From NCBI GenBank assembly GCA_036406835.1, contig DASXAG010000110.1:156-64155 (forward strand): a stretch of 64,000 nucleotides of DNA. The letters run 5' to 3'. Below the pieces are notes generated by a model. The model worked only from the letters and a program-made list of their open reading frames with translations, ran no database searches and was not told the origin of the DNA. Made by a program: the position numbers and the translations under genes. Of this stretch, positions 1,558 through 40,018 are shown one piece after another. Numbering within the stretch: position 1 is the first letter of the stretch; every line of letters begins with the position of its first letter. Origin of the DNA: Thermoanaerobaculia bacterium. GTDB lineage: Bacteria; Acidobacteriota; Thermoanaerobaculia; UBA5066; Gp7-AA6.

Positions 1558-1561
1558 CCGC

Positions 1562-1582: not shown

Positions 1583-1654
1583 CTGCGACCGGGGCGAGCC
1601 ATCCGCGCCGCCGTCACCGTCCCGCCAAAAACCCCTTTGGTATATTCGGCTGCG

Positions 1655-4102: not shown

Positions 4103-4159
4103 CTCGTTGCCGCACGTCTCACGGCCTACGGCTCACGCCCAATGTAGAATCGCCGCCTG

Positions 4160-4948: not shown

Positions 4949-4961
4949 GGAGTAAGGGGCT

Positions 4962-5052
4962 CCCCTCACCCCGTCCCTCTCCCGCCGGGAGAGGGGGTTC
5001 TGTACGACCGCCCTTGCAGGAATTCCCCTCTCCCCCCGGGCAGGGTGAGGGG
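4962..5052. repeat. REP/MITE-like palindromic element, family A
   Basis: Terminal inverted repeats CCCCTCACCC...GGGTGAGGGG with an internal hairpin CCCTCTCCC-gcc-GGGAGAGGG; a half copy occurs at 7579-7612. Confidence 0.75.
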
Positions 5053-5057
5053 GGCGA

Positions 5058-6688: not shown

Positions 6689-6694
6689 CTCAGT

Positions 6695-6780
6695 GTCATC
6701 CCGAGGGCCGCAGGCCCGAGGGATCCCTCTCGGAGCCACGGCGCGGCTTCAAAGGGGCCCCTCGCTGCGCTCGGGATGAC
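6695..6780. repeat. REP/MITE-like element, family B (86 bp)
   Basis: 11-bp inverted ends GTCATCCCGAG...CTCGGGATGAC; a second 86-bp copy lies at 57258-57343. Confidence 0.85.
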
Positions 6781-6806
6781 CGGACACGAGGCATAATCCC
6801 CCCGCC

Positions 6807-7628: not shown

Positions 7629-7987
7629 TGCAGGTGGCGGGGTTGATCCTGGTCGGGGTCGTCGCCGGAGTGTGCGCGGGCATGTTCGGGATCGGCGGTG
7701 GTCTGATCATCGTCCCGGCGCTCGTCTTTTTCTTCGGGATGACGCAGCACTCGGCGGTCGGCACGTCGCTCGGCGCGATCCTGCTGCCCGTGGGCATCCT
7801 CGGCGCGTACGTCTACTGGAAGAACGGCCACGTCAACGTGGCCTACGCCGCGTGGATCGCCGCGGGCCTGATCGTCGGCGCCTTCCTCGGCGCGAAGCTG
7901 GTCCAGCCCGTCTCGGATCTCACGCTGCGGCGGATGTTCGGGGTGTTCCTGATCGTCGCCGCGCTGAAGTTGATCTGGGGGAAGTGA
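7628..7987 (+). CDS. Sulfite exporter TauE/SafE (TSUP) family, half-size
   Basis: AGMFGIGGGLIIVPAL and AVGTSL motifs in a 119-aa hydrophobic protein. Confidence 0.85.
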   Translation: MQVAGLILVGVVAGVCAGMFGIGGGLIIVPALVFFFGMTQHSAVGTSLGAILLPVGILGAYVYWKNGHVNVAYAAWIAAGLIVGAFLGAKLVQPVSDLTLRRMFGVFLIVAALKLIWGK

Positions 7988-7988
7988 C

Positions 7989-8990
7989 GTGCTCGGGGCG
8001 TTGATCGCCCTCTTCGCGGCCGTCTGGCTGGCGCAACACAGCGGCAGCGACGCGGAGCTGCGCGGGCTGGCTGTGCGCGACGCGCAGCACGCGTGGGCGA
8101 GCGGCGCCGGCGGGACGGTGCTCCGCACCCGCGACGGCGAGCGCTGGGAGAGGCTCACGGTCGACTTCGGCGAGAAGCTCGACTTCCGCGACGTCGAGTC
8201 GCTCGGGGGAGAGAAGCTCGTCCTGATGAGCGCGGGCGAGGGCGAGGCCTCGAAGATCTTTCAGTCGACCGACGGCGGCACGACGTGGCATCGGCTGCAT
8301 ACCAACCCCGATCCCAAGGGCTTCTACGACGCGATCGCGTTCTGGGACGACCAGAACGGGATCTTGCTGGGCGACCCCGTCGGCGGCCGTTTCGTCGTGC
8401 GCACCACCGCGAACGGCGGCCGCACGTGGTACGCGCCGAAGCGGCTCGAGATGCCGCCGGCGTTGCCCGGCGAGGGCGCTTTCGCCGCGAGCGGAACGTG
8501 CCTCTTCGCCCTGAAGGGGACCAACGACGCGTGGTTCGTCAGCGGCGGCGGAGGCAAGTCGCGCGTCTTCCACACGAGCGATCGCGGCGTGACGTGGACC
8601 GCGGCCGAGGCGCCGCTCACCGCGGCCAACGCGTCCTCGGGACTCTTTTCGATCGCGTTCGCCGACGCGAGGCGCGGATTTGTGACGGGCGGCGACTACA
8701 AGCAGCCGAAGTTCGCGGGACTCAACGGTGCGCGCACGGAGGACGGCGGCGCGACGTGGTCCCCGGCGCCAATTTCGGCGACCGGCTTCTACTCGGCCGT
8801 GGTCCCGCTTCCAGGCGCGCCGTCGGACTGGATCGCGGTCGGCCTCGCCGGCACCGCCGTGAGCCACGACGGCGGCAAGACGTGGGCGGCGCTCGATCGG
8901 GCGCCCTTCAACGCGGTCGCCTTCAGTGATCCCAACACCGGCTGGGCCGCCGGGCCGAAGGGGACGATCGTCCGGTTCGGGAAGCCGTAG
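7989..8990 (+). CDS. Secreted BNR/YVTN beta-propeller protein (Ycf48-like)
   Basis: Signal peptide plus repeated S/TxDGGxTW Asp-box motifs. Confidence 0.8.
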   Translation: MLGALIALFAAVWLAQHSGSDAELRGLAVRDAQHAWASGAGGTVLRTRDGERWERLTVDFGEKLDFRDVESLGGEKLVLMSAGEGEASKIFQSTDGGTTWHRLHTNPDPKGFYDAIAFWDDQNGILLGDPVGGRFVVRTTANGGRTWYAPKRLEMPPALPGEGAFAASGTCLFALKGTNDAWFVSGGGGKSRVFHTSDRGVTWTAAEAPLTAANASSGLFSIAFADARRGFVTGGDYKQPKFAGLNGARTEDGGATWSPAPISATGFYSAVVPLPGAPSDWIAVGLAGTAVSHDGGKTWAALDRAPFNAVAFSDPNTGWAAGPKGTIVRFGKP

Positions 8991-9011
8991 GAGCGGCGCG
9001 CTAGCGCGCAC

Positions 9012-9206
9012 TCAGTCGGCGAGTGGGTTGCGAACCGTCAGGAAGTCGAACTTGAGGAAGTCGCGGTCGGCCGTGTGGAGAGTCGGCACGTCGTGCTGGC
9101 TCAGGAGAGCGGCCAGATGCGCATCCGGGACGTCGTTGCCGCGGGTGAGCACATCTCGCGTGATGGCGCGGTAGACGTCCCGGAAGCGCCGGCGTCGGTT
9201 CGCCTC
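9012..9206 (-). pseudogene. Truncated PIN-domain (VapC-like) toxin, C-terminal half only
   Basis: Manual translation gives ...FRDVYRAITRDVLTRGNDVPDAHLAALLSQHDVPTLHTADRDFLKFDFLTVRNPLAD*; the N-terminus is missing and the fragment abuts the kinase stop codon. Confidence 0.7.
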
Positions 9207-11855
<2,649 letters not shown>

Positions 11856-11876
11856 GGCCGGCGGTGATCCTCCCTG

Positions 11877-12935
11877 CTAGAACCGGCGCGCGTAGCTCGC
11901 GAGGAGGAGATAGGACGCGAACGACGCGCCGATCTTCTGGTTCATGGAGACGTCGAGCGGGCTGTCCAGCTTGTTCGCATACGCGCGGATCGGAACGCTC
12001 AGCGAGGCCATGTTGTCGCCGATCGTCCAGGTCAATCCCGGCTCCACGTACACGACGTAACCGGGCCGGCGCCAGTAGAGATCGCCGCCGCCGATCACGT
12101 CGCGCACGGTCACGCCGTTGATGCGGCCGCCGAGGCTGAGCGCGAATTCGCCCGCCCAGGGCAGCAGGTAGGCCGCGCCGATTCGGCCGGAGTACGTGTC
12201 GGGGACCGAGCGGAGAACTCCGAAGTTGAGCACGCCGGTGTGCTCCTCGAGGGTCAATCCGTAGTAGCCGGACGCGTATGCGTAGAGCGGACCCTCGAGG
12301 TGCGCCGTGCCCTGCGCGCGCAGGATGATCTCCCACCCGCCCGTGCCGAGCTGGGCGGACTCGTCGATCGGACTGTTGCCGAGTCCGGGCTGATCCTTCT
12401 CGACATTGTCATTCCCGGTCGGCGCCTTGAATCCCAGACCGACCGAACCGGTGACCCGTGTCGGTTTCGCCGGGTCCGACAGCCAGTATTCGGCCTGAAG
12501 CGTCACATCGCCGAGCCCCGACGCCCGGTAGTCGTAGACCTGATACCCGGCCGGCGCGTCCGCGCTCGCGAGGGCCACCTTCGCGCCGCCGATCGCGAAA
12601 GGGACCGTCAGGTCGAGACTCAGCCGGTCGCTGACGCCGTACAGGACGTCGAGGTTGATGAGGCTGACGATGCGGTGCGGCGGAATCCCGGGCACGGGCG
12701 CCTGCGAATCGTCCCGCTGATCGCCCACGAAGAAGTCGTCGGCGTTGCCGTACTGGTACGAGAGCTGAGCCTGCCAGCGCCTCGCCGGGAGGAACACGTC
12801 GTTCTGGACGCCCAGACTGGGCGCCGTGAAGCGGATCGGCTGTCAGCCCTGTCCGGAGGCCGTGCGGACGGCGAGCAGGACGAGGGCCGCGATGAGCAGC
12901 CCCAAGCGTCTCGAGGTGCCGAACCTGCGCTGAAT
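11877..12935 (-). CDS. Outer-membrane beta-barrel transporter-like protein with in-frame TGA (candidate selenocysteine at 12843-12845)
   Basis: The frame continues upstream of the listed ORF through QG-TGA-QPIRF into a signal peptide. A SECIS-like hairpin lies at 12807-12825. GLGD, GFKAPTG and RRPGY motifs and a C-terminal RF are present. The start is uncertain (ATT 12935 or TTG 12905). Confidence 0.7.
12807..12825 (-). promoter_or_regulatory. Candidate SECIS element
   Basis: GGCGCCCA-GTC-TGGGCGTC stem-loop beginning 18 nt after the UGA; it shares GTCTGGG with the FDH SECIS. Confidence 0.65.
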
Positions 12936-12959
12936 GACGCTCTCCTCGTTTCTCCTATC

Positions 12960-13628
12960 CTACGGCTCAGCGCCCGTCTCGGTCGAGTAGGGAAGCGCGA
13001 ACGCCCGGTAGGTGAGGGCAACATGGCCGACGAGGATGCGGGCGCCGTCGGCGAGGGGGATCGAGGCCTCGACTTTCCGGTCGTCCACGCGGGTGCCGTT
13101 CTTGCTGCCGAGGTCCTCGATCGCGGCGCTTCCGTCCGTCACCACGATGCGCGCGTGGCGGCGCGAGACGCTCGCATGGTCGACGAAGAGGCCGACTCCC
13201 GGATCTCTTCCGATGAGCGTCTCGCCGGAGGGAAGCTCCGTGCGCTTGTCGCCGTGCAGGATCCAGCAGGACCACTTGCGGACCGAGCCGCGGACCGTGC
13301 CGGAACGAAGATCGCCCTGCTCCTCCCGCGCCTCGCCGCAGAACGCGTAGCCGAACCCGTGAACGGTTCGTACGAAGAGCGGGTCTCGCGCCTGATCGCC
13401 GATGGCGCCGCGGAGCTCGACGAGGAGGCTCGTCAGCGTGGCGTCCGAGACGAACGTTCCGGGCCAGAGCCTCTCGTGAATCTGGCTCTTCGAGACGGCC
13501 CGCGGCCGGTTTTCGAGGAGCAGCTCGAGAAGCTGGAAGGCCTTGGGTTGGATATGGACGACCTCACTGCGGACGGACAGCTGCCGCGTCTCTGAGTCGA
13601 GCAGGCACTCTCCAAATCGGATCCGCAT
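12960..13628 (-). CDS. Winged helix-turn-helix (OmpR/CadC-type) plus FHA domain transcriptional regulator
   Basis: N-terminal wHTH (LLELLLENRP...LRGAIGD...VRTVHGFGYAF) and FHA motifs (IGRD, SRRHA, DLGSKNGT). Confidence 0.9.
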   Translation of the reverse strand: MRIRFGECLLDSETRQLSVRSEVVHIQPKAFQLLELLLENRPRAVSKSQIHERLWPGTFVSDATLTSLLVELRGAIGDQARDPLFVRTVHGFGYAFCGEAREEQGDLRSGTVRGSVRKWSCWILHGDKRTELPSGETLIGRDPGVGLFVDHASVSRRHARIVVTDGSAAIEDLGSKNGTRVDDRKVEASIPLADGARILVGHVALTYRAFALPYSTETGAEP

Positions 13629-13781
13629 CGATTTCGCCTGGAGCCTTGCAGCGAATTATGGACCGGTTCGCTGGCCGCCCGGTTCAAACCCAGCGATTTT
13701 CAAGGGTCCTTCCCACGACTCGGTCCGCGCCCGAGCACTAGCGTCCGTGGCGTGGACGGGCCAATCCAAGAGGAGGACAAG

Positions 13782-16700
13782 ATGTTCCGCAAGGCGATTC
13801 GTCAGATCTGGATCCTCGGCGTCCTGTTGGCGATTCCGGCGTTTCTGCGCGGCGGCGTGAACACCTGGACGGGCGGCGATGCGACCTCGGCGGCCGAGAC
13901 GTTCAGCGTGGTCGCCGCGGACCCGACCGATCCCTACGTGGTGTACGGGTCGTTCGGCCACGACCTCCATCGGAGCCGCGATGGCGGCCGCACGTGGGAG
14001 CGGCTCCGATCCTTCGGTCCGATCTCGGCGATCCTGGTGCTCCCGGCGTCGCCCTCGACGATCTACGCCGTAGGCTACGACGCCTTCGGATCATCCGGTG
14101 TCTTCCGGAGCACGGACTCCGGGGACAACTGGACCAACGTCCTCGAAGCCCCGGTGTACTCGCTCGCCAGTAGTCCGACGGACGCCTCGGTCGTCTTCGC
14201 GGGAGGATGGTCCAGGATCTACAAGTCGACGGACTCCGGGGACCATTGGTCCTTCGTCTCGTTTCAAGGCGTGATCACCAGCCTCGTGATCAATCCCAAG
14301 AACCCCTCGACTCTCTATGCGGGCGCGGACGCGGACCTCAGCTACGGCTACTTCTGGGGCGCCTTCGGGAAGAGCGAGGACGGAGGAGCGAGTTGGAGCA
14401 ATCTCACGCCCGCAACCGTCCGGAGTGTTCCCGCCCTCGGGATCGACGCCGGCGCGAGCGCGACGCTGTATGCCGCGCGCTTCCAGACCGGGGCTCCGGC
14501 CGGCGCCGACCCCGTTTTCGCCGAGCCCACCGTTCCCTGGAGCGTCGTTCGCTCGGAGGATGGCGGGGTCACGTGGAGCTTGCCGGGCACGGGGCTCCCC
14601 GAGGTCAAGGTCCAGTCTCTGGCGACGGATCCGCGGATCTCCGGGACGCTTTATGCGGGAACGGACGTCGGCGTCTACCGCAGCCGCGACGGCGGCCGCA
14701 GCTGGACTCCGTTCGGCCTGGCCGGACTTCCGATCATTTCGCTGGCCATCGACGGTAACGGGACCCGCCTGCACGCGGGGACGTCGACGCAGGGCATCTA
14801 CGACTTCGAGATCGCGAGCGGGCCTCTCGACGTCGCCGCGGGACCCGCGGGCGGGAGTCGATTCCTCTCGTGGAACACCGACCGGCTCTCGGTCGCGGCG
14901 CTCGACGCGTCCGGACATTCGACGGTGGGACCGACGAGTGATGCATCGGAGACCTGGAGGGCGACGGCGATCGCGTCGGACGGAGGCGACCGGGCGCACG
15001 TTCTCTGGCATTGCACCGACGGGCGCTCGGCGCTCGAGATCGTCGGACGGTCCGGACGCGAGTCCGTGAAGGTGTTCGCGGCGGAAGCCGGGTGGATGCC
15101 CGGCGACGTCTCGGTGCGCTCCGGCGGGAAGACGAGCCTGCTGTGGACGCATGCCGACGGAAGGATGCGGATCGCGACGATCGACTCCTCCGGCGGCGCG
15201 GTGGTCGGCCCGGAGTATGGGCCCGCCTTCGGCTGGTCCGCCGTGGCCATTGCGGACGATTTCGCCGGTACGACGCGAGTGCTCTGGCGGTCGAGCGACG
15301 GACGGTCGTCCCTCTCGCTCCACCGGGACGGCGAGATGCTCTCGTTCCTGGGCTGGCCGGCCGATCCGGGCTGGTCGGTCGAAGACATCGCCGTGGGAGC
15401 CGATGGACGGACGCGGCTGCTTCGAACCTCGCCGGACGACTCGGCCGAGGTGTCGATCGTCGAACCGGACGGCACGCGGACTTCGCCCACGACCTACGCC
15501 TCGCCCGGATTCACGCCTCGAAGGATCGCGGCGGGCGCGGACGGTCTCACGCGGCTTCTCTTCAGCGGGGATGAGGGAAGCGGCGACCTCGTCGTTCTCG
15601 CCGCCGACAACACGCTCACCGCGCGGCATGCGATCCCCTCGGCGAATGCTGCGACCGTCGTCGTCACGACGGTGTCGGAGCTCGAGGCCGCGCTCGTTCC
15701 GGCCAACGCGGGAGCCCAGATCGTCGTACGTGCGGGCGACTACGAGATCGCCAATCCCCTGACGGTCCCGGACCGCGCAATCCTTGCGGGTGAGGGCGTC
15801 ATGACCCTCGACGAGTCGAAGCTGCCGGCCGGCATCGCGCCATCGGGGAGGACGGTGATCCGCGCCGCGGCCGGACTCGCGGGCGACATCCTGACCCTCG
15901 GCAACGGGTCCGTGATCCGAAGTCTCGTGATCGAGGACGCGGAGGGCCGGGCGGCCGGGAATCCCGTCGCCGTGGTCTCGCGAGACGCCGGCGATCGCGT
16001 CACCGCGCGGATCCTGGACTGCGAGATCGTCAACCCGAATCCGTCGGGGATCGCGCCGCAGGGCCCCACCGGGCGCGGCCTGGTCGTCTGGACGCGCAAC
16101 CCGAACCTGGGCGAGGATCCGCCGCCGCACGAGGGCGCCCGTCTGCGCGTGCAGATGACGCGCTCGATCGTGCGCTCGCCGGCGGCGGCCATCGGCGTCT
16201 TCTCCATCAACTTCGCCTCGCACGCCGCGATCGACCTCGACCTCGACGGCTGCGTGATCGGCGGTGGACTCACGACGGCCGGCGGCGTCAGCCGCCCCGA
16301 TGCCGTGACGGGCGCGGTCCTGAACGTCGCGTCCCGCCGGAACCTGTACCGCTCCGACAGCCCCGATCCGACGCCTCAGGGCTGGAATCTGCAGGGCGGA
16401 ACGAGTGCTCCCATTCCCGGTCTCGCGTCGCAGGCGTCGACCTCCAACACGCTGCGTGTTCACTCCAGGGACGACCGGATCGAGGGCTTCGCGAACGGGA
16501 TCTTCGCCACGGGTGCGACGCGGTCGAATCCCCTCTCGGAACCGAGCTCGTCGAACGGGATCGACCTGACTCTCCAGGGCCTGCGCCTGCAGACGGCGGC
16601 GGCCGATCTCACGCTCTTCGGCGCGACGACGTTCGTCGAGGGCGTCTCGGCGGGGGATGACAACGGCGTGCGCGTCGTGATGCGCCAGTCGACCGGCAGC

Positions 16701-27243: not shown

Positions 27244-27462
27244 CTACAGGATCTTGCCGGCGCGGAGCTCGCCGAGGATCACCCAGCCCATCAGGATGAA
27301 GGCGATCCCGAGGAGCGCCGGCCCCAGGAACATGAAGGCCGTGAAGACGTAGGGCGTCTCCTTGAACAGGAGGGCCAGGCCGAGCAGGACCGCGATCGCC
27401 GTGGCGACGATCGCCAGGCGAACGAGCGTGATCGCCCGCTCCGGGGACGGCGCCGCGCTCAC
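27244..27462 (-). CDS. Small two-TM membrane protein
   Basis: 72 aa with two hydrophobic helices; GTGA overlap with the NapC-like gene. Confidence 0.65.
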   Translation of the reverse strand: MSAAPSPERAITLVRLAIVATAIAVLLGLALLFKETPYVFTAFMFLGPALLGIAFILMGWVILGELRAGKIL

Positions 27463-28163
27463 TTCATCGCCTCCTTCGTCTCGGCCGGCGTGTGGGCGGG
27501 GCCGTGGCAGTCGAGGCAGGAGTCCGTTCCCGCGGCCAGCTTCGGGAGCTCCTCGGCGTCGTGTTTGGCGAGGAACTTCTGCGAGCCGCTGTGGCAATTC
27601 AGGCAGCGGAGGTTCGAGTACGGCTTCGCGATCTTGATGGGTTTCTCGTAGTGGCCCGTCGTGTTGTGCCAGACGTGGCCGAGTCCCTCCATCTTGGCGC
27701 TGACGGTGCCGAACATGCCGTAGTCGCTGTGGCACGTGTAGCAGTGATTCTCCTGGATGTAGCGGTTCTTGTAGTGGACCGCCGCGAGCGACTCGCTCTT
27801 CGGGTTGCGCAGATCCTGCACGTGCCCGTCCATGACGTGGCAGTGCCCGCAGGCGTCGACCGTCATGGACTCCTGCATCCCCTGCGCCGTCGCGAGGAAC
27901 ACGACGATCACGGGAAGGACGAGGATCGACCCGAAGAGGAAGGCCTTGGAGATCGTCGTGATGCCGCGGCGGCGGAGGCTGATCCAGACCGCCGCGAGCA
28001 ACACGAGGTTCAGAACCGCGAAGGAGATTCCGACTCCGCGGAGCCACTGGTTCGTGGTTCCGACCCAGCCGTGCGGCGGTGGAACCTCCATTCCCTCCTT
28101 GACCGCCTGCGAGGGCGAGGTCGCGGAGACCGGAGCGGCTTCCTGGGCGTCGGGGGAGTACAT
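27459..28163 (-). CDS. NapC/NirT-family tetraheme cytochrome c
   Basis: N-terminal TM segments and four heme motifs: CGHCH, CYTCH, CLNCH, CLDCH. Confidence 0.85.
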   Translation of the reverse strand: MYSPDAQEAAPVSATSPSQAVKEGMEVPPPHGWVGTTNQWLRGVGISFAVLNLVLLAAVWISLRRRGITTISKAFLFGSILVLPVIVVFLATAQGMQESMTVDACGHCHVMDGHVQDLRNPKSESLAAVHYKNRYIQENHCYTCHSDYGMFGTVSAKMEGLGHVWHNTTGHYEKPIKIAKPYSNLRCLNCHSGSQKFLAKHDAEELPKLAAGTDSCLDCHGPAHTPAETKEAMK

Positions 28164-28454
28164 CTACTTGGCGGGGGTGTAGTCCTTCAGCCAGGCGCCG
28201 TCGACCTTGCTCGCGTTGCGCTTGGTCTTCTCCGCCACGAGCCACTTGCCGGCGTCGTTGAGCTCGTGCTTGCCCTCGTCCTTCTTGGGGAGCTTGTCGA
28301 CGTGGCAGGTGCTGCAGTCCTTCACCGCGACACCGGCGGCCTTGGCCTGCTTCTGGATTTCGAGATCGGCCGTCGAGGTGCCGCTGAAGGCGATCCAGCC
28401 GCACCACGCGAGGAGAACGGCGATCATTCCGAGGCGAGATCCGCGATTTTGCAT
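28164..28454 (-). CDS. Small periplasmic monoheme cytochrome c
   Basis: Signal peptide and a single CSTCH motif. Confidence 0.75.
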   Translation of the reverse strand: MQNRGSRLGMIAVLLAWCGWIAFSGTSTADLEIQKQAKAAGVAVKDCSTCHVDKLPKKDEGKHELNDAGKWLVAEKTKRNASKVDGAWLKDYTPAK

Positions 28455-28494
28455 GGGAGTCCCCCTTTTGGGGCCGAATCCTACAGGGGCCGGC

Positions 28495-30468
28495 CTACGG
28501 ACGCCAGTGGACGAAGATCCCATAGCGGTTGCCGTTGAAATCTGAGAGAGCGCCCGCCTGGTCGAACGCCGGCCGCTCGATGTACTTGTCCTGCAGCCAC
28601 TCGGCCTCGAGACCCAAATTCGGCGTGAAGAAGTACTCCGCCCGCATGCGAATCCGGTTGATCGAGAACGGAAGGGAGCCGTGGTTGCCCATCCACAGGT
28701 AGGCGCCGTCGAAGTTGAGGTTCTGCCACGCGACGGTCACGCCGCCCTCCCAGGTGTGGCCGACCTCGTCCTGGGCGGTCGGGACGACCGTGAAGTCCTG
28801 CGGCTGGAGGATCAGGACCGACCGGTCGACGCTGAACAGGCCGCCGGAGCCGTGGATCGTGACGGCGTGCTTGAACAGGTCCACGGAGACGTCGCCCGCC
28901 ACGTCCCGCACGACCGCGCGGTAGTCGATCGCCGGCTCGTCGTCCTTTGCCCGGCTCTCCTGGTACGTGCCGCCGATGCGGACCATCTCGTTCCACTCCC
29001 AGCCGACGCGGAACTTGTACCGGTCGCGGTCGAGGAAGTCGGACCGGAAGATCAGCTCGTCCGCGTGGTCGTGGCGGTAGTCTCCCGCGAGGGTCAGACC
29101 GAGGCAGCACGAGCGGAAGGTGAAGCCGCCGCCATAGGTGTCGACGGTCCGTTCGTACTCCCCGGGCGTCGAGCCGTCGATGAGGCTCGAAAACTCGCCG
29201 CCGAAGTCGACGTCCTGGTGGGTCTGCGACCAGCCCACGTTGACGGCGAAGGGCCCGAGCTGCCGGTCCTGGACGGTCACGTCGAAGGTGCGGTCGTCGC
29301 GGTGGAGCGAGGTGTTGCTCCGAACCGTGTTCAGCAGGTCGCCGGTGCTGATCCCGCCGAAGGTCTGGGAATCGATGTAGAGACTGTTGGCGAGCGCGCT
29401 GCCGGTGAGCTCGCGGCTCCTCTCCGTCCATCCTCCCGTCACGCCGATGCCCATGCCGAACTCGTAGTCCGCGCGCGCGGACCCTCGCCAGTAATTGACC
29501 TTGGCCGACGAGTTGATCGCGTCGTCGAGCCCCGTGAAGAAGCGCGAGATCGCGAAGGAGACGAAGTTCCCGGCGTCGGTCTCGGCCGAGTCCGAGGACG
29601 CGTTCGCGTCGGAGCGGATGTAGCTGCCGGACAGCGTGAGCTTGTCGAGGGGATGCCCGGTGATCCAGACGTTCGTCACGGGCGTGTTCGTCTTGGAGTT
29701 GGTGGTGCGGTCGATGCCGTCCGCCGTCACCGTCTGCCCGAGGATCGGGAAGGAGACGTTGCCGCCGTTCGCGCCCGGGAAGAGCGACACGACGTCCCGC
29801 AGGCGGTACTGCCGGTACCCCTCGGTCACGGCGCCCTGGACGATCGAGGTGTTGAAGGCCAGGCCGACGCGGTACTCGTCGTCGATCGCGCGCATCCCCT
29901 CGTTCAGGAGGAAGTCGTTCTCGCCGACGTGGAAGGTCGTCGTGCCGGGCCCGCGGTAGATGTTGCGGGTGAACCCGAGGATCGGGGTGAGGGTCTTCCC
30001 CGGGAAGATCTGGAGCGTGGCGTCGTAGATGTCGCGCGTGCGGTCGTAGGTGTGCTGGCCCGGGATGACGCCGTCGTCGAGGAGCGGGTTCGCGAACGCC
30101 GGAAGCGCGCTGAAGAGGTCGGTCCGCCGCCAGCTGAAGTCGAGGCGGAAGCGGTCGACCTGCCCGGCGGCGAGCTTGAGCATCCCCGCCGGCCCGGCGC
30201 CGACGTCGTTGGCGTCGATGCGGAAATAATCGAGCACGCCGTCGAGCGGCTTCGTCGAGGCCCACGTCAGCGACCGCAGCAGGACTCCGGGCTTGTCGTT
30301 GATCTGCGTCCGGTACATGTCGTCGTTGCCCGACACCTTGACGAAGCGGTAGCCGAGCTCGAACTCGACCGGGAACGACTGGGAGACCGTGGTCGGCTGC
30401 TGAGCGAAGAGCGCGGGCGCGACCCCGAGGACGAGCGCGGCGGCGATCCCGGCGATTCGCGTCCGCAT
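28495..30468 (-). CDS. MtrB/PioB-like outer-membrane beta-barrel
   Basis: Signal peptide MRTRIAG...LFAQ, alternating aromatic beta-strands, and position immediately after the decaheme gene. Confidence 0.8.
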   Translation of the reverse strand: MRTRIAGIAAALVLGVAPALFAQQPTTVSQSFPVEFELGYRFVKVSGNDDMYRTQINDKPGVLLRSLTWASTKPLDGVLDYFRIDANDVGAGPAGMLKLAAGQVDRFRLDFSWRRTDLFSALPAFANPLLDDGVIPGQHTYDRTRDIYDATLQIFPGKTLTPILGFTRNIYRGPGTTTFHVGENDFLLNEGMRAIDDEYRVGLAFNTSIVQGAVTEGYRQYRLRDVVSLFPGANGGNVSFPILGQTVTADGIDRTTNSKTNTPVTNVWITGHPLDKLTLSGSYIRSDANASSDSAETDAGNFVSFAISRFFTGLDDAINSSAKVNYWRGSARADYEFGMGIGVTGGWTERSRELTGSALANSLYIDSQTFGGISTGDLLNTVRSNTSLHRDDRTFDVTVQDRQLGPFAVNVGWSQTHQDVDFGGEFSSLIDGSTPGEYERTVDTYGGGFTFRSCCLGLTLAGDYRHDHADELIFRSDFLDRDRYKFRVGWEWNEMVRIGGTYQESRAKDDEPAIDYRAVVRDVAGDVSVDLFKHAVTIHGSGGLFSVDRSVLILQPQDFTVVPTAQDEVGHTWEGGVTVAWQNLNFDGAYLWMGNHGSLPFSINRIRMRAEYFFTPNLGLEAEWLQDKYIERPAFDQAGALSDFNGNRYGIFVHWRP

Positions 30469-30470
30469 GG

Positions 30471-31439
30471 CTACTTGAGGAACGCCTCGGAGAGGTTCGA
30501 GCCGTGGATCGCGACGTGGCACGTCGTGCAGTTGCGGTAGCGGGGGAGCGAGAGATCGTGGAACGACGGCGGCTGGCCTCCCGCCGTCCGCGGCCCGCCG
30601 CTCTTCGAGTGGCAGGAGAGGCAGAGCTGGTCGACGCGCGCCCAGATCAGCTGCTTCGGATTGCTCGAGCCGTGCGCCTCGTGGCAGGTCAGGCAGTTGC
30701 CGGCGGAGCCCGTGACGTGATCGAAGACGAAGGGCCCGCGCTTCTCGGCGTGACAGCTCATGCAGGCGAGCTCGCCGTCGGAGGTCAGCTTGACCGGCTG
30801 TCCCTTCCGGTCGTGGGGATCGTGGCAGTCGACGCAGGTCATGCCGCCCTTGTCGAGCCGATGCGCGTACGGCTTGTTGCGGAACGACGCCGCGATGCCC
30901 GTGTGGCAGGTCTGGCACAGCGCGCCGGTGTCCTTCGCCAGCAGGTGCTCGGCGCGCGGCCCGGTACCCGTTGCATGGATCGAGTGGCATGAGAGGCAGT
31001 TCACGGCGGCGGAGTTCGCGTGGAACCCGAACGCGAACGAGCCGTGGGGGTTCGACTTCGAGTGGCAGGAGAGGCAGTTCTCCGCGCCCTCGAGCCCGTG
31101 GAAGGTCATGATCTTGGTGGGATCGCCGCTGCTCTCGATGTGTGCGGTGCCGTCGCCGTGGCAGGTCGAGCAGGCCTCCTCCGGATCCGGCGCCGCCGGA
31201 CCGTGCGAGCGCGCGTGGGGGTTCGAGGCGAAGGCCTTGACCTGCGCCTCGTGGCAGTCGGCGCACTTGGGCAGTTCGGAGGCGGCGGCGGCCGCAGCGG
31301 CCGCCGTGGGGTGAGCGGCCGGCGAAGCCGGTGCGGCGGCCGGCTTCGGGGTCGGCGTGGGCGCGGCGGTCTGGCCGAGAAAGACCGCCGCTACGCCGGC
31401 CATCAGCGCCACCGCGGCGAGCGTCGCGCGGCTCCTCAC
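30471..31439 (-). CDS. DmsE/MtrA-family decaheme cytochrome c
   Basis: Ten CxxCH motifs (CADCH, CSTCH, CLSCH x3, CQTCH, CVDCH, CMSCH, CLTCH, CTTCH), KRGPFVFDH and HGSN. Confidence 0.9.
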   Translation of the reverse strand: MRSRATLAAVALMAGVAAVFLGQTAAPTPTPKPAAAPASPAAHPTAAAAAAAASELPKCADCHEAQVKAFASNPHARSHGPAAPDPEEACSTCHGDGTAHIESSGDPTKIMTFHGLEGAENCLSCHSKSNPHGSFAFGFHANSAAVNCLSCHSIHATGTGPRAEHLLAKDTGALCQTCHTGIAASFRNKPYAHRLDKGGMTCVDCHDPHDRKGQPVKLTSDGELACMSCHAEKRGPFVFDHVTGSAGNCLTCHEAHGSSNPKQLIWARVDQLCLSCHSKSGGPRTAGGQPPSFHDLSLPRYRNCTTCHVAIHGSNLSEAFLK

Positions 31440-31511
31440 ACCACCCTCACTCCCTCAACACGCGAGGCGCGGTCAACGCGACCGCCCTGTTACCCTAACG
31501 CGCCAATAACG

Positions 31512-33593
31512 CTACTGCGCGTGGACCTTGTCGACCGAGAATTCGGCGTCCGGGCCGTGGCACGCGGCGCAGGCCTCTCCGAACGGCGCCGTCATCGTGA
31601 ACGCGTGCGCCGCCGCCGCCTGGGTGTCGTGACAGCCCAGGCACGCCGCCGCCGTCGGCTGCTGCGGCGAGTACCAGTCTCTCGGCGTGGCGGTCGCGAG
31701 TCGCCCGGCCGGCATCACGTCCGGGATCTCCTGCGAGCCGTTCACGTGGCACATCGCGCAGTCGCGCCGGTCACCCGGGAAGCGCAGCCCGTTGAAGTCG
31801 AGGTAGGGCTGCGTCAGCTCGTCCCCGGTGTGAAGGCGGTGGATCAACCGCTTGAAGTCGAGCGACTCCGGCGGTTCCTGATCGTCGAACATGGTCGGGT
31901 TGTGGCAGAAGACGCACTCCTGAGGGTTCAGCCGGTTCGAGCCGTGGAAGTTGAGCTGGTCGTGGCAGGTGTTGCAGTTGGCGACGTCCACGACGATGCG
32001 GCGCGGCACCGGCGCCGGGTCCGTGACGGCGGCGAAGAAGACCGGGTTGAAGGCCGCGTCCCTCGCGGTCGTCGTGTCGCGCGGCGCGGGGTTCAGGTTC
32101 ACCGTGAGCCGGGCCTCGATCGAGAAGCCCCAGGTGCCTGTCGCGTCGGCCGGGATCGGCTCCATGAACGTATAGCTGTAGTTGCCTCCGCTCGGGGTCG
32201 CGCCGTCGGCGCGCTCGCGGAGCTGCGGCGGAATGGCGTAGTCGGTCGTCGGGCCGGACATGATGACGTTCAGGCCGCTGCTCGTGGTGCCGTCGGAGTT
32301 CACGGTCGTGAAGGCGGACGGCGGAATCGGCGTCCCGTCGTTCTGCTTGATGTTGAAGACGACCGTCGGGTTCTGCCCCGGACCGCTATGGGTCACCGAG
32401 ACGATCTCGGCGTTCACGCCCTTCAGCTGCGTCGACTTGGTGGGCACCGTGTGCGCGCCGATGATCGAGACGTCCCACTCCTGGTCGCCCTGCGGACGGT
32501 GGCACCCCGCGCACGAGCCGTCGGGCTCCGGACCCGGTCCGTGGTTCTCGCCCGTCGTCAGGTTCACGTCGTCGTGGCAGGACGTGCACGCCGCGGCGCT
32601 CGGATTCGTGTACCAGCTGACGGCGCCGGGCGCGGACTCCGGGTTGTGGCAGGTCGTGCAGTTGCGGATGTCCTGCGGGAAGACGACGTCCGAGAAGTCG
32701 ACCGTCGCGTTCTGGAACCCGACGATGTAATAGGGATTGCCGGCCTGAACGCTCGGCAGGTCCTCGCCGCGGTGGATCTTGTGGATCATCACCTTGAAGT
32801 CGATCGTGTTGCCGCTGTCGGGATCGATGTTCGGCGTGCCCGCCACCGTGGTGTTCGAATGGCAGAGGACGCAGAGATGAACGTCCTTGCGCGCCCCGCC
32901 GTGCGCCGAGAGGTCGGTGTGGCAGCCGTTGCACGCGGCGTTGCTGGCGAGGTCCCACTTCTCGGTCACCGCGCCGCCGTCGGGGCGGAAGTCGTACTCG
33001 GCGTTCGCGAAGTAGTTCTTGGTGAAGTTGCCGCCGGGAACGTTGAGCATGTCGCGCGTGCCGTAGATTCCGACCGTGGTCGTCTTCGTCGCGTCGTAGT
33101 CCGCGGGCAGCGCGGTGCCGAAGGTATAGATCGCGCGCCCGAGGTCGACGTCCTGGTAGCTTCCGCCCGAATCGGTTCCGGCCTGCGTCGCCTGGACTCC
33201 GTTCGTGCCCGTCTGCTTGCGCGTCGTGTACGCACTGTAGTCGTGCGTGGCGCCGTCGTACTTCGAGAGGATGAAGCTCGTCGAGATCGCTCCCGGCGTC
33301 GCTTTTCCGGCGCGGTCGAGCGGCTGCCCCAGGTCGTCGGTGAGGGAAATGTCCACGACGGCCTTTCGGTCGGCGTTGATCGTGACGCTGTTGACGGTGA
33401 CGTGAAATCCGGGGCGCGTGTACCCGAGCTCGTCCGCCGTCATCCAAAATTCCTGCTGCGACTTCGTGTAGATCGTCTTCGGGTCGATGGGGCCGCGGCC
33501 CACGGTGCGTGTCACGCGAGGATTCGTCGTGGGAAGCGCGACGAGCGCTCCCGCCATCAACATCGTCACCAGACCGGTTCGATGAGTCGTCAT
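31512..33593 (-). CDS. OmcA/MtrC-family decaheme cytochrome c
   Basis: Ten CxxCH motifs in two clusters of five separated by a beta domain; DFKVMIHKIH and DFKRLIHRLH. Confidence 0.88.
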   Translation of the reverse strand: MTTHRTGLVTMLMAGALVALPTTNPRVTRTVGRGPIDPKTIYTKSQQEFWMTADELGYTRPGFHVTVNSVTINADRKAVVDISLTDDLGQPLDRAGKATPGAISTSFILSKYDGATHDYSAYTTRKQTGTNGVQATQAGTDSGGSYQDVDLGRAIYTFGTALPADYDATKTTTVGIYGTRDMLNVPGGNFTKNYFANAEYDFRPDGGAVTEKWDLASNAACNGCHTDLSAHGGARKDVHLCVLCHSNTTVAGTPNIDPDSGNTIDFKVMIHKIHRGEDLPSVQAGNPYYIVGFQNATVDFSDVVFPQDIRNCTTCHNPESAPGAVSWYTNPSAAACTSCHDDVNLTTGENHGPGPEPDGSCAGCHRPQGDQEWDVSIIGAHTVPTKSTQLKGVNAEIVSVTHSGPGQNPTVVFNIKQNDGTPIPPSAFTTVNSDGTTSSGLNVIMSGPTTDYAIPPQLRERADGATPSGGNYSYTFMEPIPADATGTWGFSIEARLTVNLNPAPRDTTTARDAAFNPVFFAAVTDPAPVPRRIVVDVANCNTCHDQLNFHGSNRLNPQECVFCHNPTMFDDQEPPESLDFKRLIHRLHTGDELTQPYLDFNGLRFPGDRRDCAMCHVNGSQEIPDVMPAGRLATATPRDWYSPQQPTAAACLGCHDTQAAAAHAFTMTAPFGEACAACHGPDAEFSVDKVHAQ

Positions 33594-33660: not shown

Positions 33661-34152
33661 CTAGGGGCGGTAAGTCAATATGCCCTTTGGTCCCACGGGG
33701 TTTTGAGCGCTTTGAGCGGTTTGGGGCGGGCCTCCCTCGACGACCGTGACGCTCCTCCCGAGGACCTCGTCGCAGAACCGCTCGAGATCCGCGTTCGAGA
33801 ACTCGTCCCAGCCCCGGCAGGGGCCGCAGCCGGTCCGAGCGTCGCAGGCGATCGGAATCCGCAGGCGCAGCTGCTCGGTTTGCTGCCAGAGATCCGCGAC
33901 GAGCTCCATCTGGGCGCGGTTCAAATGCGTGGATCGGCCCATCGCCTTCGACCAGACCTTGAGAAACGTTCCGTCGGGCCACCGGCGGAATCCCCGGCAG
34001 AAGACGCCGAGCCTTGCGGCGATTTCACACATCGAGTGCTCGCCGTCCGACAGCCGGAGCAGGCCCTCGCGCAGGCACGCGATCGCCTGCTCACGCGTCA
34101 GGACCGCGGGCGCGGGGGCCGGCGAGGCGGTACCGTCACTCGACGAGGACAC
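33661..34152 (-). CDS. Cys-rich hypothetical protein (paralog B)
   Basis: HxxC-x9-C and CD-x7-CxGW; aligns by eye with 34136-34525. Confidence 0.7.
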   Translation of the reverse strand: MSSSSDGTASPAPAPAVLTREQAIACLREGLLRLSDGEHSMCEIAARLGVFCRGFRRWPDGTFLKVWSKAMGRSTHLNRAQMELVADLWQQTEQLRLRIPIACDARTGCGPCRGWDEFSNADLERFCDEVLGRSVTVVEGGPPQTAQSAQNPVGPKGILTYRP

Positions 34153-34525
34153 GGCGGCCCGTCAGCTCCAGGATGGCGCCCTCGAGCGCCAGGTTGTCGA
34201 ACTGGTTCCAGCCATCGCACCCGCAGTGCTCGCGGGTCTCCAGGTCGCAGCACAGCGTGAGCCCCGCGACCTGCTGCCTCCCCAGGTGGTAAAGGCTGAT
34301 GAGGCTCTCGAGCTCCTCACGGGAGATGCCCGGCCGGGTCCTCGCGATCCAGGAGAACCGGCGGCGCAGCTCGGCGTCCGAGAGCTCACGCAGGCCGCCG
34401 CAGAAGACGTTGGCCTTCGCGGCCACGGCGCAGGCGCAGTGCGTCTCGTCGGTGAGCGCGGAGAGGCGCTCGCGCAGTATGCCGATGGCCTTCGGTCGGG
34501 AGAGACATTCGAACGCGGGCTCCAT
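34136..34525 (-). CDS. Cys-rich hypothetical protein (paralog A)
   Basis: GAGGAGG Shine-Dalgarno; HxxC-x9-C and CD-x8-CxGW. Confidence 0.75.
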   Translation of the reverse strand: MEPAFECLSRPKAIGILRERLSALTDETHCACAVAAKANVFCGGLRELSDAELRRRFSWIARTRPGISREELESLISLYHLGRQQVAGLTLCCDLETREHCGCDGWNQFDNLALEGAILELTGRRVLVE

Positions 34526-34571
34526 GACGTCCTCCTCTCTTTCTCTTCTTCGCGTGGTTTCTTCGTTCTCC

Positions 34572-34964
34572 TCAGCCTGCCGAGCGTGCGTCCGCCGCGG
34601 CGTCCGCCGTCGCGCCGAGCCAGGCCACCGCGAGCGTCGAGGCCGCGAGCGCGAAGGCGATTGAGAGGCGCGCCAGATCCGCGCGCGAAGCGTCGGACAG
34701 GAGGATGAATGCCGTGAAATAGAAGTCCAGCACGGCAACGTCCACGAGGTCCCGCACCCGACCCTGAACGCAGACGCGGAGGAAGAGCAGGGCCAGGACC
34801 CCCAACGCGAAGGGCAGCCACGACGCGCCGGTCGTGGGCCAGCCCGCGCCCGGGTTGTCCCGCGTCGGGAGGACGAGCAGGGCGCAGAGGAAGAGCACGA
34901 CGCGCGCGCCGGTGCCGAGGGGGCGATCGAGGAAGCGCTGACCGCGGACGAGGATGGCGTTCAT
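34572..34964 (-). CDS. Membrane protein, possibly an internally deleted relic
   Basis: Hydrophobic 130-aa ORF with GAGG Shine-Dalgarno; FLDRPL...LLVLPT and WLPFALG...LVDVAVL. Confidence 0.5.
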   Translation of the reverse strand: MNAILVRGQRFLDRPLGTGARVVLFLCALLVLPTRDNPGAGWPTTGASWLPFALGVLALLFLRVCVQGRVRDLVDVAVLDFYFTAFILLSDASRADLARLSIAFALAASTLAVAWLGATADAAADARSAG

Positions 34965-34974
34965 CGGAACCTCC

Positions 34975-35214
34975 TCACTCCGCCGTGTCGGAGTCCACGG
35001 CGGACGGTCGGACCGAACGGAGCAGGTCCGCCGCGGGATAACGGTAGTGGCCGCCGGGAGTGCGGACGGCCTGGATCAGCCCGGTGCGGGCCCACCGAGT
35101 GACGGTCGAGAGCGAGACCCCGTAGAGGCGGGCGACCTCGCCCCGAGACAGGAACTCCTTGCGAAACGGGACATCGATCGGTTCGGCGAATTGCTCGACT
35201 TGTTCTGTTTCCAT
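34975..35214 (-). CDS. BldC/excisionase-like MerR-type helix-turn-helix DNA-binding protein
   Basis: LSRGEVARLYGVSLSTVTRWARTGLIQAVRTPGGHYRY. Confidence 0.85.
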   Translation of the reverse strand: METEQVEQFAEPIDVPFRKEFLSRGEVARLYGVSLSTVTRWARTGLIQAVRTPGGHYRYPAADLLRSVRPSAVDSDTAE

Positions 35215-35248: not shown

Positions 35249-35264
35249 TGATGCAAACGCATCA
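35249..35264. promoter_or_regulatory. Palindromic operator TGATGC-N4-GCATCA, copy 1
   Basis: TGATGCaaacGCATCA in the divergent intergenic region. Confidence 0.75.
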
Positions 35265-36165: not shown

Positions 36166-36825
36166 GTGGCGACTTCGGACGAGGCCCTGGACCGCATCGC
36201 CCGCAGCGGAGACGCCGTCTTCGCGATCGACTCCTCCGACCGGATCATCCTCTGGAACAGGAAGTGCGAGGAGATGCTCGGCCGGCCCGCCCGCGCCGTG
36301 CTCGGCAAGCGCTGCTACGACGTCATCGGCGGACGCGACGAGAACGGCAACGTCTACTGCTACCGCAACTGCCCCGTCGCCCACCAGGCGCGGGATTTGC
36401 CCCAGGATCCCGTCCACCGATTTCAGCTCTCGATGGAGGCCGGAGACGGGAAGCGCAAGATGGTCGACGTCTCGCTGTTCGCCATTCCCTCCTTCCACCC
36501 GGCGCTCTCGACGGTGGTCCACGTCCTCCGCGACGGAAAGAAGAAGAAGCCTTCGGGGCTCGAGCGCGGCCTCGCGGAGAAGGCCGACGCGCGCCCGCCC
36601 CTCTGGCCGATGACCCGGAAGTCCGCGCCCGTGACGGAGCTGACGGAACGCGAGAAGGAGATCCTCCGCTGCCTGGCGGAGGGCCTGCCGACGGCGGCGA
36701 TCGGTAAGAAGCTCTTCATCGCGCCGGTGACGGTTCGCAACCACGTCCAGAGCATCCTCCAGAAGCTCGACGTCCACACGAAGCTCGCGGCCGTCGTCTT
36801 CGCCTACCAGAACGGCCTGATCTGA
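36166..36825 (+). CDS. PAS plus LuxR HTH one-component regulator
   Basis: N-terminal PAS domain and C-terminal LTEREKEILRCLAEG...TVRNHVQSILQKL. Confidence 0.9.
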   Translation: MATSDEALDRIARSGDAVFAIDSSDRIILWNRKCEEMLGRPARAVLGKRCYDVIGGRDENGNVYCYRNCPVAHQARDLPQDPVHRFQLSMEAGDGKRKMVDVSLFAIPSFHPALSTVVHVLRDGKKKKPSGLERGLAEKADARPPLWPMTRKSAPVTELTEREKEILRCLAEGLPTAAIGKKLFIAPVTVRNHVQSILQKLDVHTKLAAVVFAYQNGLI

Positions 36826-36869: not shown

Positions 36870-36885
36870 TGATGCAATCGCATCA
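36870..36885. promoter_or_regulatory. Palindromic operator, copy 2
   Basis: TGATGCaatcGCATCA upstream of the radical SAM gene. Confidence 0.75.
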
Positions 36886-39805: not shown

Positions 39806-39821
39806 TGATGCGTCTGCATCA
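39806..39821. promoter_or_regulatory. Palindromic operator, copy 3
   Basis: TGATGCgtctGCATCA just after the ATP-grasp stop codon. Confidence 0.7.
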
Positions 39822-40002: not shown

Positions 40003-40018
40003 TGGTGCGTTTGCATCA
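40003..40018. promoter_or_regulatory. Palindromic operator, copy 4 (one mismatch)
   Basis: TGGTGCgtttGCATCA ending 66 bp upstream of the USP start. Confidence 0.65.

Follow-up and report, generated by a model that had tools for sequence, protein, structure and literature searches.

The six-gene cluster described here raises the question of whether a single locus can encode an unbroken electron route from the inner membrane to the cell surface and, if so, in which direction electrons would travel. Within the window, by which we mean the whole stretch of 64,000 nucleotides analysed, the ORF list returned gene order, strand and coordinates as described in the first-pass annotation (Table 1), and the 25 CxxCH motifs counted there proved exact in a per-ORF motif count (10, 10, 0, 1, 4 and 0 from the mtrC-like gene to the gene of the 72-aa protein), all of them sharing a single minus-strand reading frame. 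Outside the six genes, all other frames of the 64-kb window contain a single CxxCH, and only three further ORFs with at least three such motifs are present in the 4.06-Mb genome. This multiheme cytochrome set is very small compared with those of dedicated metal reducers, which is counted against a role in extracellular electron transfer (EET). The identities previously proposed for the six parts were all borne out, and the host, annotated before as a probable acidobacterium, belongs to the acidobacterial class Thermoanaerobaculia as judged from named relatives. Soils and sediments commonly contain members of this class. The host, a soil bacterium, is a heterotroph that respires oxygen, and its genome carries cytochrome c maturation genes together with genes for two heme-copper oxidases.

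Table 1. Features of the locus, listed from the upstream end of the minus strand.
Feature	Position	Strand	Basis or remark
16-bp palindrome TGATGCAAACGCATCA	35249..35264	.	about 35 nt upstream of the likely start of the HTH gene
HTH_17/MerR-like gene	34975-35214	minus	Pfam
membrane protein gene	34572-34964	minus	upstream gene string
Cys-rich paralogue, first	34136-34528	minus	upstream gene string
Cys-rich paralogue, second	33661-34152	minus	upstream gene string
six-gene cluster	27244-33593	minus (all, co-oriented)	ORFs and CxxCH counts
mtrC-like, OmcA/MtrC-family decaheme, 693 aa	31512..33593	minus	TIGR03507, PF22113, 10 CxxCH
mtrA-like, periplasmic decaheme, predicted barrel-inserted, 322 aa, signal peptide	30471..31439	minus	TIGR03508, 6R2Q_A
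mtrB-like outer-membrane barrel, 657 aa, no plug domain	28495..30468	minus	AF2 fold, Foldseek, hhalign
small periplasmic monoheme c-type cytochrome, 96-aa precursor, about 67 aa mature	28164..28454	minus	one CSTCH, signal peptide
NapC/NirT-family tetraheme, 234 aa, alternative start 28091	27459..28163	minus	PF03264, four CxxCH
72-aa protein, two transmembrane helices	27244..27462	minus	start overlaps tetraheme stop by 4 nt

Assignment by HMM, which the first-pass annotation had suggested as a check, succeeded in part: the MtrC-like and NapC/NirT-family proteins scored above their cut-offs, whereas the MtrA-like protein fell 4 bits short and the barrel had no match. The MtrC-like protein reached 444.7 bits against TIGR03507 (cut-off 209.3) over profile positions 6-672 of 672, contains two PF22113 domains (E 1.4e-56) and matched MtrF (3PMQ, E 1.9e-38) and OmcA (4LMH, E 2.7e-21) in the PDB. 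Its CxxCH motifs, equally ten in its homologues, form two groups of five at positions 239-379 and 558-693, numbered on the 712-codon ORF that includes an upstream extension. All of its exactly 20 cysteines lie in heme motifs, as in nearly all of the approximately 60 homologues, leaving neither a lipobox cysteine nor an extra disulfide. The LxxC lipoprotein signal and the CX8C disulfide, typical of the Shewanella clade although not strictly defining for the OmcA/MtrC family, are thus absent, so that display at the surface is a prediction, a point counted against the EET reading.

The MtrA-like protein scored 188.1 bits against the DmsE-family model TIGR03508 (cut-off 192.2; profile positions 4-257 of 258), and aligned to MtrA 6R2Q_A with an E value of 3e-27 (residues 58-316 versus 66-325), all ten CxxCH motifs being in register. 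Its gene lies directly upstream of the barrel gene with a 2-nt gap, and in all loci whose contig extends that far, mtrA is listed beside the barrel. The MtrA phylogeny called for in the first-pass annotation was built solely against acidobacterial MtrA proteins adjoining canonical barrels; the tree splits by barrel type with a support of 100/99, and the MtrA-like protein falls into the divergent-barrel clade. A DmsEFAB-like function was rejected, as no DmsAB-type reductase is encoded nearby and MtrC is present.

For the barrel, the earlier label "MtrB-like" found no backing in family HMMs and was confirmed by fold and profile-profile comparison. Pfam and NCBIfam, including PF11854 and TIGR03509, gave no match at E<=0.1, a scan of the whole genome with these two models was equally negative, and a profile of 35 close homologues searched against PDB sequences returned chance matches, MtrB not being found. 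The AF2 model (pLDDT 79) comprises about 26 strands, the first of which directly follows the signal peptide, and its top Foldseek match was MtrB (6R2Q_B, E 2.7e-13, TM 0.63/0.64), compared with TM values of 0.33-0.47 for the other 49 matches listed. In hhalign comparisons with canonical MtrB, the close family alone reached ambiguous probabilities of 45-77%. Including 23 distant relatives from a search of 1.84 billion proteins gave 98.4-99.7% (E 1e-14 to 4e-26) against canonical acidobacterial MtrB over 494-609 aligned columns, with a reversed control below 3%; only with these distant relatives did the homology become clear. Four of ten distant relatives scored below threshold on PF11854 (13-22.8 versus 23 bits). 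Based on profile comparison and predicted fold, we conclude that the barrel is a remote MtrB/PioB homologue of a divergent subfamily; the source-named relatives listed carry it under the label "hypothetical protein".

On the inner-membrane side, the monoheme cytochrome matched no Pfam or NCBIfam family, and its AF2 model (pLDDT 75) had no fold match in the PDB, which leaves a kinship with MtoD or class I cytochromes without support. Its homologues share invariant CxxCH, PKK, W and D residues, and no sixth heme ligand was recognisable in their alignment, which is counted against the EET reading. Its gene directly follows the barrel gene in 33 of 35 close loci and is often duplicated. The protein is a candidate electron carrier linking the tetraheme of the inner membrane to MtrA. 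The tetraheme scored 40 bits against PF03264 (cut-off 24.1; profile positions 13-170 of 174) and stayed far below the equivalog cut-offs for NrfH (TIGR03153, 49 versus 134 bits), NapC/NirT (29 versus 311) and TorC (30 versus 478); a sequence search of the PDB gave no significant match. Its first heme motif reads CGHCHVM (CxxCHxM). Hydropathy and the homologue alignment point to a hairpin of two hydrophobic transmembrane helices rather than a single N-terminal anchor, the N-terminus being exported in most homologues, and we regard the protein as a candidate quinol dehydrogenase. The 72-aa protein has no Pfam or NCBIfam match and carries a conserved LLxxET...FxxFMxLGP motif; its gene is present wherever the tetraheme is (15/15 loci), and the protein is likely a membrane partner of the tetraheme.

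The four genes at 33661..35214, separated by short gaps or overlapping, probably represent the upstream part of the mtr operon. In about ten related loci mtrC is likewise preceded by this string, and in about eight further loci by the second Cys-rich paralogue alone. The palindrome ahead of the string may serve the operon as an operator or as an activator site: related loci contain 89 such boxes in 1.4 Mb versus about three expected, and in 30 of 63 loci either mtrC or the upstream gene string has a box no more than 300 nt ahead of it. The palindrome is also tied to a PAS-LuxR stress regulon. A promoter and terminator scan yielded zero promoters, and terminators at chance level. Soil metatranscriptome contigs with 100% identity covered 16% and 10% of the cluster, whereas for the 20 kb next to it the figures were 2.5% and 0%, at low depth and with the caveat that such contigs can contain DNA. 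Among these RNA-library contigs, one bridges mtrC and mtrA, and another bridges the monoheme and tetraheme genes.

The self-contained route from the inner membrane to the cell surface proposed in the first-pass annotation is supported as the best reading of these data, and we consider it probable that the cluster is a complete Mtr-type EET chain operating outward. The hairpin-anchored NapC/NirT-type tetraheme, probably paired with the 72-aa protein, would oxidise membrane quinol, and the small basic monoheme cytochrome would carry the electrons across the periplasm. From there, they would pass through the outer membrane along an MtrA homologue threaded through the 26-strand MtrB-type barrel to the MtrC homologue, with which the two would assemble into a complex, and which would reduce acceptors at the surface that are insoluble or macromolecular, for instance oxides of Fe(III)/Mn(IV) or humic quinones. 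Oxygen limitation most likely switches the operon on, presumably via the palindromic box of the PAS-LuxR stress regulon. The most likely function is to pass electrons outward to Fe(III), Mn(IV) or humics when oxygen is low, although direction and acceptors are what we infer above all else. Mtr-type modules are reversible, so that their direction cannot be read from sequence. The presence of an MtrC-type surface cytochrome in every locus is counted for the outward direction. Counted against the complete outward chain are the failure of the barrel in curated MtrB models, the 4-bit shortfall of MtrA and the absence or replacement of the inner-membrane module in most related loci. Reduction of both Fe(III) and Mn(IV) is a trait of Thermoanaerobaculum aquaticum, a cultured member of the class, and a hot-spring MAG assigned to this species is reported to encode an MtrC along with two MtrA proteins (PMC9671151).

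It is conceivable, if unlikely, that the same hardware works inward, as in MtoAB/PioAB, drawing electrons from Fe(II), reduced humics or minerals that would reach the quinone pool or terminal oxidases by way of the monoheme cytochrome and the tetraheme. The reversibility of Mtr-family conduits extends to NapC/NirT proteins, the two heme-copper oxidases could receive such electrons, and the small monoheme shuttle recalls MtoD in role. However, the invariable MtrC-type surface decaheme argues against this direction, since MtoAB/PioAB-type oxidising clusters are not known to have an MtrC partner, as do the lack of RuBisCO in the genome, the link of the operon to a stress regulon and the monoheme cytochrome, which had no PDB fold match (MtoD being covered only if contained in the library).

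The barrel family occurs in about half (195 of 401) of the sampled Thermoanaerobaculia genomes, and the order mtrC-mtrA-barrel was found in 64 of 64 related loci with room on the contig. The tetraheme module accompanies this core in 15 of 35 close loci, a second monoheme gene takes its place in 16, and none of the distant loci has an adjacent inner-membrane module; in the one second-monoheme locus that was read throughout, the genes that come next encode a multiheme cytochrome, a b-type cytochrome and a NapC-like protein of 484 aa. The conserved core does not include the inner-membrane module, an accessory that can be exchanged. This patchy occurrence, together with the second monoheme gene in loci without the module, would fit a conduit limited to mtrC-mtrA-barrel, with the monoheme cytochrome, tetraheme and 72-aa protein forming a separate, merely adjacent periplasmic respiratory branch. 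We judge such a separation improbable: gaps of 0-40 nt and the 4-nt overlap tie the module genes to the barrel gene, which the monoheme gene follows almost without exception, an RNA-library contig runs from the monoheme gene into the tetraheme gene, the vicinity has no gene for a periplasmic reductase, and swapping of inner-membrane modules is a published pattern for Mtr clusters (PMC8805035). That the barrel is an ordinary porin or transporter not housing MtrA, leaving no trans-outer-membrane conduit, is highly improbable, as the missing MtrB HMM match, a faint Porin_4 (PF13609) mark in some homologues and TonB-dependent transporters among the fold-search matches are set against about 26 strands (versus 22 in TonB-dependent transporters), the missing plug domain, MtrB as top fold match by a clear margin, profile-profile homology of 98-99.7%, the invariant synteny and an MtrA that co-evolves with the barrel.

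With the outward Mtr-type chain as the preferred reading, a broader proposal can be formulated, for and against which we see about equal weight: a class-wide, so far unannotated MtrCAB lineage, distinguished by MtrB and MtrA subfamilies of its own, an MtrC that is not a lipoprotein, an orphan monoheme cytochrome as shuttle and a NapC-like quinol dehydrogenase anchored by a hairpin, may be wired to a palindromic PAS-LuxR low-oxygen/stress regulon and make about half of Thermoanaerobaculia facultative EET organisms, whose barrel HMM-based censuses such as those with FeGenie, PGAP and Pfam would miss. Mtr censuses depend on MtrB found beside MtrA and MtrC, and the present barrel escapes Pfam and NCBIfam. 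If the system works as predicted, an abundant soil and sediment lineage would join the respirers of Fe/Mn oxides and humic substances once oxygen runs out, a second, very divergent MtrAB pair would become available for studies of barrel/decaheme co-evolution, and EET transplanting could draw on a compact operon of ten genes that comes with a candidate site for a regulator. In-cluster quinol dehydrogenases are already known from other Mtr groups; more notable are the escape of the barrel from every MtrB model and the class-wide lineage.

The multiheme-plus-barrel cluster of Flieder et al. 2021 (marine Thermoanaerobaculia, T. aquaticum) was rejected as this system, because its genes encode an NHL-repeat protein, a PPIase-like protein and two hypothetical barrels. 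Closer parallels exist to Shewanella MtrCAB (6R2Q of S. baltica), with which the locus shares the order mtrC-mtrA-mtrB, an MtrC decaheme with two pentaheme domains, ten MtrA motifs in register and a 26-strand barrel, and to the S. oneidensis MR-1 pathway (CymA, STC/FccA) with its succession of quinol dehydrogenase, periplasmic shuttle and conduit. In contrast, the barrel is only about 10% identical to Shewanella MtrB and invisible to PF11854 and TIGR03509, and MtrC is neither a lipoprotein nor equipped with the CX8C disulfide. Likewise, the putative quinol dehydrogenase is a two-helix hairpin with a small partner encoded in the operon, and the candidate shuttle is an orphan monoheme cytochrome instead of the tetraheme STC or FccA.

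Among Fe(II)-oxidising systems, Sideroxydans uses MtoA/B together with the monoheme MtoD and a protein resembling CymA. This MtoAB-MtoD-CymA(ES-1) system and the PioAB system of Rhodopseudomonas resemble the present locus in pairing an MtrA-type decaheme with a barrel of the MtrB/PioB type, and in having a monoheme carrier in the periplasm and a NapC/NirT-type protein in the inner membrane. MtoAB/PioAB clusters use canonical PF11854 barrels, whereas the locus described here has a non-PF11854 barrel, an MtrC and a monoheme cytochrome without PDB fold match. The combination of a membrane-anchored tetraheme with a tiny membrane protein recalls NrfH/CymA/NapC and NapE/TorE, and the CxxCHxM first motif is found as in NrfH. 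However, NapC/NirT proteins have one N-terminal helix, the tetraheme here has two and an exported, conserved N-terminal PxPxGWxGTTxxW, and the NapE/TorE models did not match its 72-aa partner.

The first-pass annotation had contrasted the in-cluster quinol dehydrogenase and shuttle with the separate loci of Shewanella; candidates for both are present here, although this arrangement is not unusual outside Shewanella, as most Mtr groups contain an in-cluster CymA, NetBCD or PdsA according to Baker et al. 2022, who also noted mtoC and mtoD (PMC8805035). With non-Shewanella systems such as Vibrio/Aeromonas pdsA-cymA/netBCD and the Group 5 Acidobacteriia, the locus shares a self-contained, modular build in which mtrCAB is accompanied by cytochromes specific to the group. 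The census of Baker et al. depended on a recognisable MtrB and listed only five acidobacteria (Acidobacteriia, Group 5), which possess a periplasmic tetraheme and no inner-membrane quinol oxidoreductase (PMC8805035). While these five provide an acidobacterial precedent, the lineage described here belongs to another class, uses another barrel subfamily and comes with an inner-membrane module.

Gene calling placed six closely packed genes on the minus strand of the window, and the interval proposed by the first-pass annotation runs exactly from the stop codon of the last gene to the start of the first. In order, they encode an MtrC-like protein, an MtrA-like protein, a barrel, a monoheme cytochrome, a tetraheme cytochrome and a 72-aa membrane protein, carrying 10, 10, 0, 1, 4 and 0 CxxCH motifs in a single reading frame, so that a recount returned both the gene set and the total of 25 motifs claimed earlier; across the remaining frames of the 64-kb window there is one CxxCH altogether. 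The source genome is a MAG of 4.06 Mb in 131 contigs (92.5% complete), in which a whole-genome ORF scan found only three further ORFs with at least three CxxCH motifs, leaving this cluster as the one candidate extracellular electron transfer (EET) system of the organism. On visual inspection, the three sequences resemble an alternative-complex-III-type pentaheme, a pentaheme with a TPR fusion and an octaheme membrane protein.

Coordinates of the cluster and of accompanying features in the window, elsewhere in the source genome and in related loci of other genomes
Feature	Location	Strand	Observation
Six-gene cluster	window, 27244-33593	minus	
Barrel gene	window, 28495-30468	minus	residues 454-455 are a vicinal Cys-Cys pair in this copy, without conservation in the family consensus
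Two Cys-rich paralogues	window, 33661-34528	minus	directly 5' of mtrC; no Pfam family
Further TGATGC-N4-GCATCA boxes	window, 36870-36885, 39806-39821, 40003-40018		in the adjacent island
ActA-like pentaheme	source genome, contig C56, 7074-18391		resembles ActA of alternative complex III; a heme-copper oxidase gene lies about 10 kb away
Alternative module	related locus L002 (L002/L012), ~10000-14200		two monoheme paralogues, 375-aa multiheme protein, Ni_hydr_CYTB-type b cytochrome, 484-aa five-heme NapC-like protein
Two barrel types in tandem	related locus L105 (GCA_016210925.1), 997-9685		divergent-barrel triad, directly followed by another MtrA-like decaheme with a canonical MtrB (PF11854)
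Tandem MtrC paralogues	related loci L060, 3487-7824, and L073, 4614-8890		5' of mtrA; seen in some distant-clade loci

By sequence, the 693-aa protein is clearly assignable to the OmcA/MtrC family, scoring 444.7 bits against TIGR03507 (cut-off 209.3), containing two PF22113 pentaheme domains (Pfam) and matching MtrF (3PMQ) with an E-value of 1.9e-38. Exactly 20 cysteines, every one within a heme motif, are found in the window's copy and in nearly all homologues. HMM assignment succeeded for this protein and for the 234-aa tetraheme (Pfam NapC/NirT, 40 bits versus 24.1), but the 322-aa MtrA-like protein fell narrowly below the DmsE/MtrA model TIGR03508 (188.1 versus 192.2 bits) and the barrel remained unmatched. 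The MtrA-like protein aligns over its whole length with MtrA of the solved Shewanella baltica complex (6R2Q chain A, E 3e-27), with ten of ten heme motifs in register. The tetraheme scored far under the NCBIfam equivalog cut-offs of NrfH, NapC and TorC; its first heme motif is CxxCHxM, as also occurs in NrfH, and hydropathy and homologue alignment revealed two hydrophobic helices and a conserved N-terminal segment that is exported, a cleavable signal peptide being present in most homologues and absent from the window's copy. Neither the 96-aa monoheme nor the 72-aa protein matched a Pfam or NCBIfam family. The 72-aa protein bears a conserved ET...F..FMxLGP motif and accompanies the tetraheme in every case among related loci. 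In the monoheme, CxxCH, PKK, a Trp and an Asp are invariant among homologues, with no second invariant His or Met, and its modelled three-helix structure found no match in a PDB fold search.

The 657-aa barrel had been described as MtrB-like, a label for which no family HMM offers support: it matched no Pfam or NCBIfam model, PF11854 (MtrB_PioB) returned nothing genome-wide, and a profile of 35 close homologues retrieved no MtrB sequence from the PDB. Fold and profile-profile comparison nevertheless place it with MtrB. The AlphaFold model (pLDDT 79, pTM 0.73) shows a plug-less barrel of about 26 strands starting directly past the signal peptide, and its top PDB match is MtrB (6R2Q chain B; E 2.7e-13, TM 0.63/0.64), while the other 49 listed matches, nearly all TonB-dependent transporters, reached only TM 0.33-0.47. 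Aligned by hhalign with 20 canonical acidobacterial MtrB sequences, the close family gave ambiguous probabilities of 45-77%. After 23 distant full-length members, taken from 856 representative relatives recovered by exhaustive profile search, were added, these became 98.4-99.7% (E 1e-14 to 4e-26, 494-609 columns; reversed-template control below 3%). Four of ten distant relatives scored 13-22.8 bits on PF11854 itself (cut-off 23). Of 80 related loci taken from species-representative genomes, 64 have upstream room, and in every one of them mtrC and mtrA precede the barrel; the MtrA tree splits by neighbouring barrel, this type or canonical PF11854, with support of 100/99, the two MtrA copies of locus L105 falling on opposite sides. 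Taken together, fold, profile-profile comparison, intermediate relatives, synteny and the MtrA split led to the conclusion that the barrel is an MtrB homologue despite lacking an HMM match, belonging to a divergent branch of MtrB/PioB that has evolved together with an MtrA of its own. The earlier interpretation as an EET conduit is supported.

The inner-membrane module is accessory. A monoheme gene directly follows the barrel in 33 of 35 close loci with downstream sequence; the tetraheme and 72-aa genes come next, as in the window, in 15 of these 35, and a second monoheme paralogue without tetraheme in 16. At L002/L012, the sole locus of the latter kind read fully, the genes that come next encode a multiheme cytochrome, a b-type cytochrome and a NapC-like protein of 484 aa, an arrangement resembling a Cbc-type quinol oxidoreductase in the tetraheme's place. 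None of 34 more distant loci has monoheme, tetraheme or 72-aa genes adjoining the barrel, and three read in detail contain the mtrC-mtrA-barrel triad only. This modularity agrees with other Mtr groups, in which CymA, NetBCD or PdsA are often encoded in-cluster (Baker et al. 2022, PMC8805035); the complete conduit in one cluster highlighted previously thus holds up, though such a layout is in itself not unusual.

Named relatives are nearly all Thermoanaerobaculia or Acidobacteriota MAGs, and those named by their source were, among the matches listed, all labelled 'hypothetical protein'. Of 401 genomes sampled from the class, 195 carry the barrel family, in 66 of 133 genera. In the phylum, 99 of 401 genomes carry canonical PF11854 barrels, none of these genomes belonging to the window's genus, family or order. 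The same triad lies on short contigs binned to other phyla, in a Longimicrobiales (L045) and an Acidithiobacillales (L069) MAG, which could reflect misbinning or horizontal transfer; the L045 MtrA nests within the Thermoanaerobaculia clade.

Upstream of mtrC, co-oriented and separated by short gaps, lie an HTH_17/MerR-like gene, a membrane protein gene and the Cys-rich paralogues, a string also found 5' of mtrC in many relatives. In about 25 of 80 related loci (L004-L083), a Cys-rich homologue lies no more than 10 kb from the triad; in the distant clade it sits about 5 kb downstream, encoded on the opposite strand and adjoining a PAS-LuxR gene. A perfect palindrome, TGATGCAAACGCATCA, occupies 35249-35264, about 35 nt 5' of the HTH gene, and a PAS-LuxR protein is encoded nearby at 36166-36825. 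Allowing at most one mismatch, 89 such boxes occur in the 80 loci (1.4 Mb) versus about 3 expected, and 30 of 63 loci, distant clade included, have one no more than 300 nt 5' of mtrC or of the upstream string. Soil metagenomes contained 95-98% of sampled 31-letter words of the stretch. Contigs of 100% identity from two soil metatranscriptomes covered the cluster to 16% and 10%, as against just 2.5% and 0% for the adjoining 20 kb; one of them bridges mtrC and mtrA, another the monoheme and tetraheme genes. The coverage argues for real transcription, at low depth and with possible DNA carry-over.

Two heme-copper oxidases, secretin-type proteins and genes for cytochrome c maturation are present in the genome; RuBisCO was not found in it. 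The ActA-like pentaheme near an oxidase gene suggests that aerobic respiration proceeds without a bc1 complex. Outward transfer, with electrons passing to Fe(III), Mn(IV) or humics when oxygen becomes limited, would fit a heterotroph that respires oxygen, bears a surface cytochrome of MtrC type and has its operon under a putative stress box; inward electron uptake by the cluster is less likely but compatible with its sequence. Within the same class, a cultured member, Thermoanaerobaculum aquaticum, can reduce Fe(III) and Mn(IV), and one MtrC and two MtrA were reported in a hot-spring MAG assigned to it (PMC9671151).

Overall, the cluster encodes a genuine MtrCAB, strongly divergent and equipped with a feeder module specific to its lineage, which shows Mtr-type EET to be widespread in a major soil acidobacterial class and probably expressed there, with a barrel invisible to curated MtrB models. 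Compared with the Shewanella paradigm, MtrC here is no lipoprotein and lacks the CX8C disulfide, as heme motifs use all of its cysteines, and the tetraheme has two helices, with an orphan monoheme and the 72-aa companion at its side.
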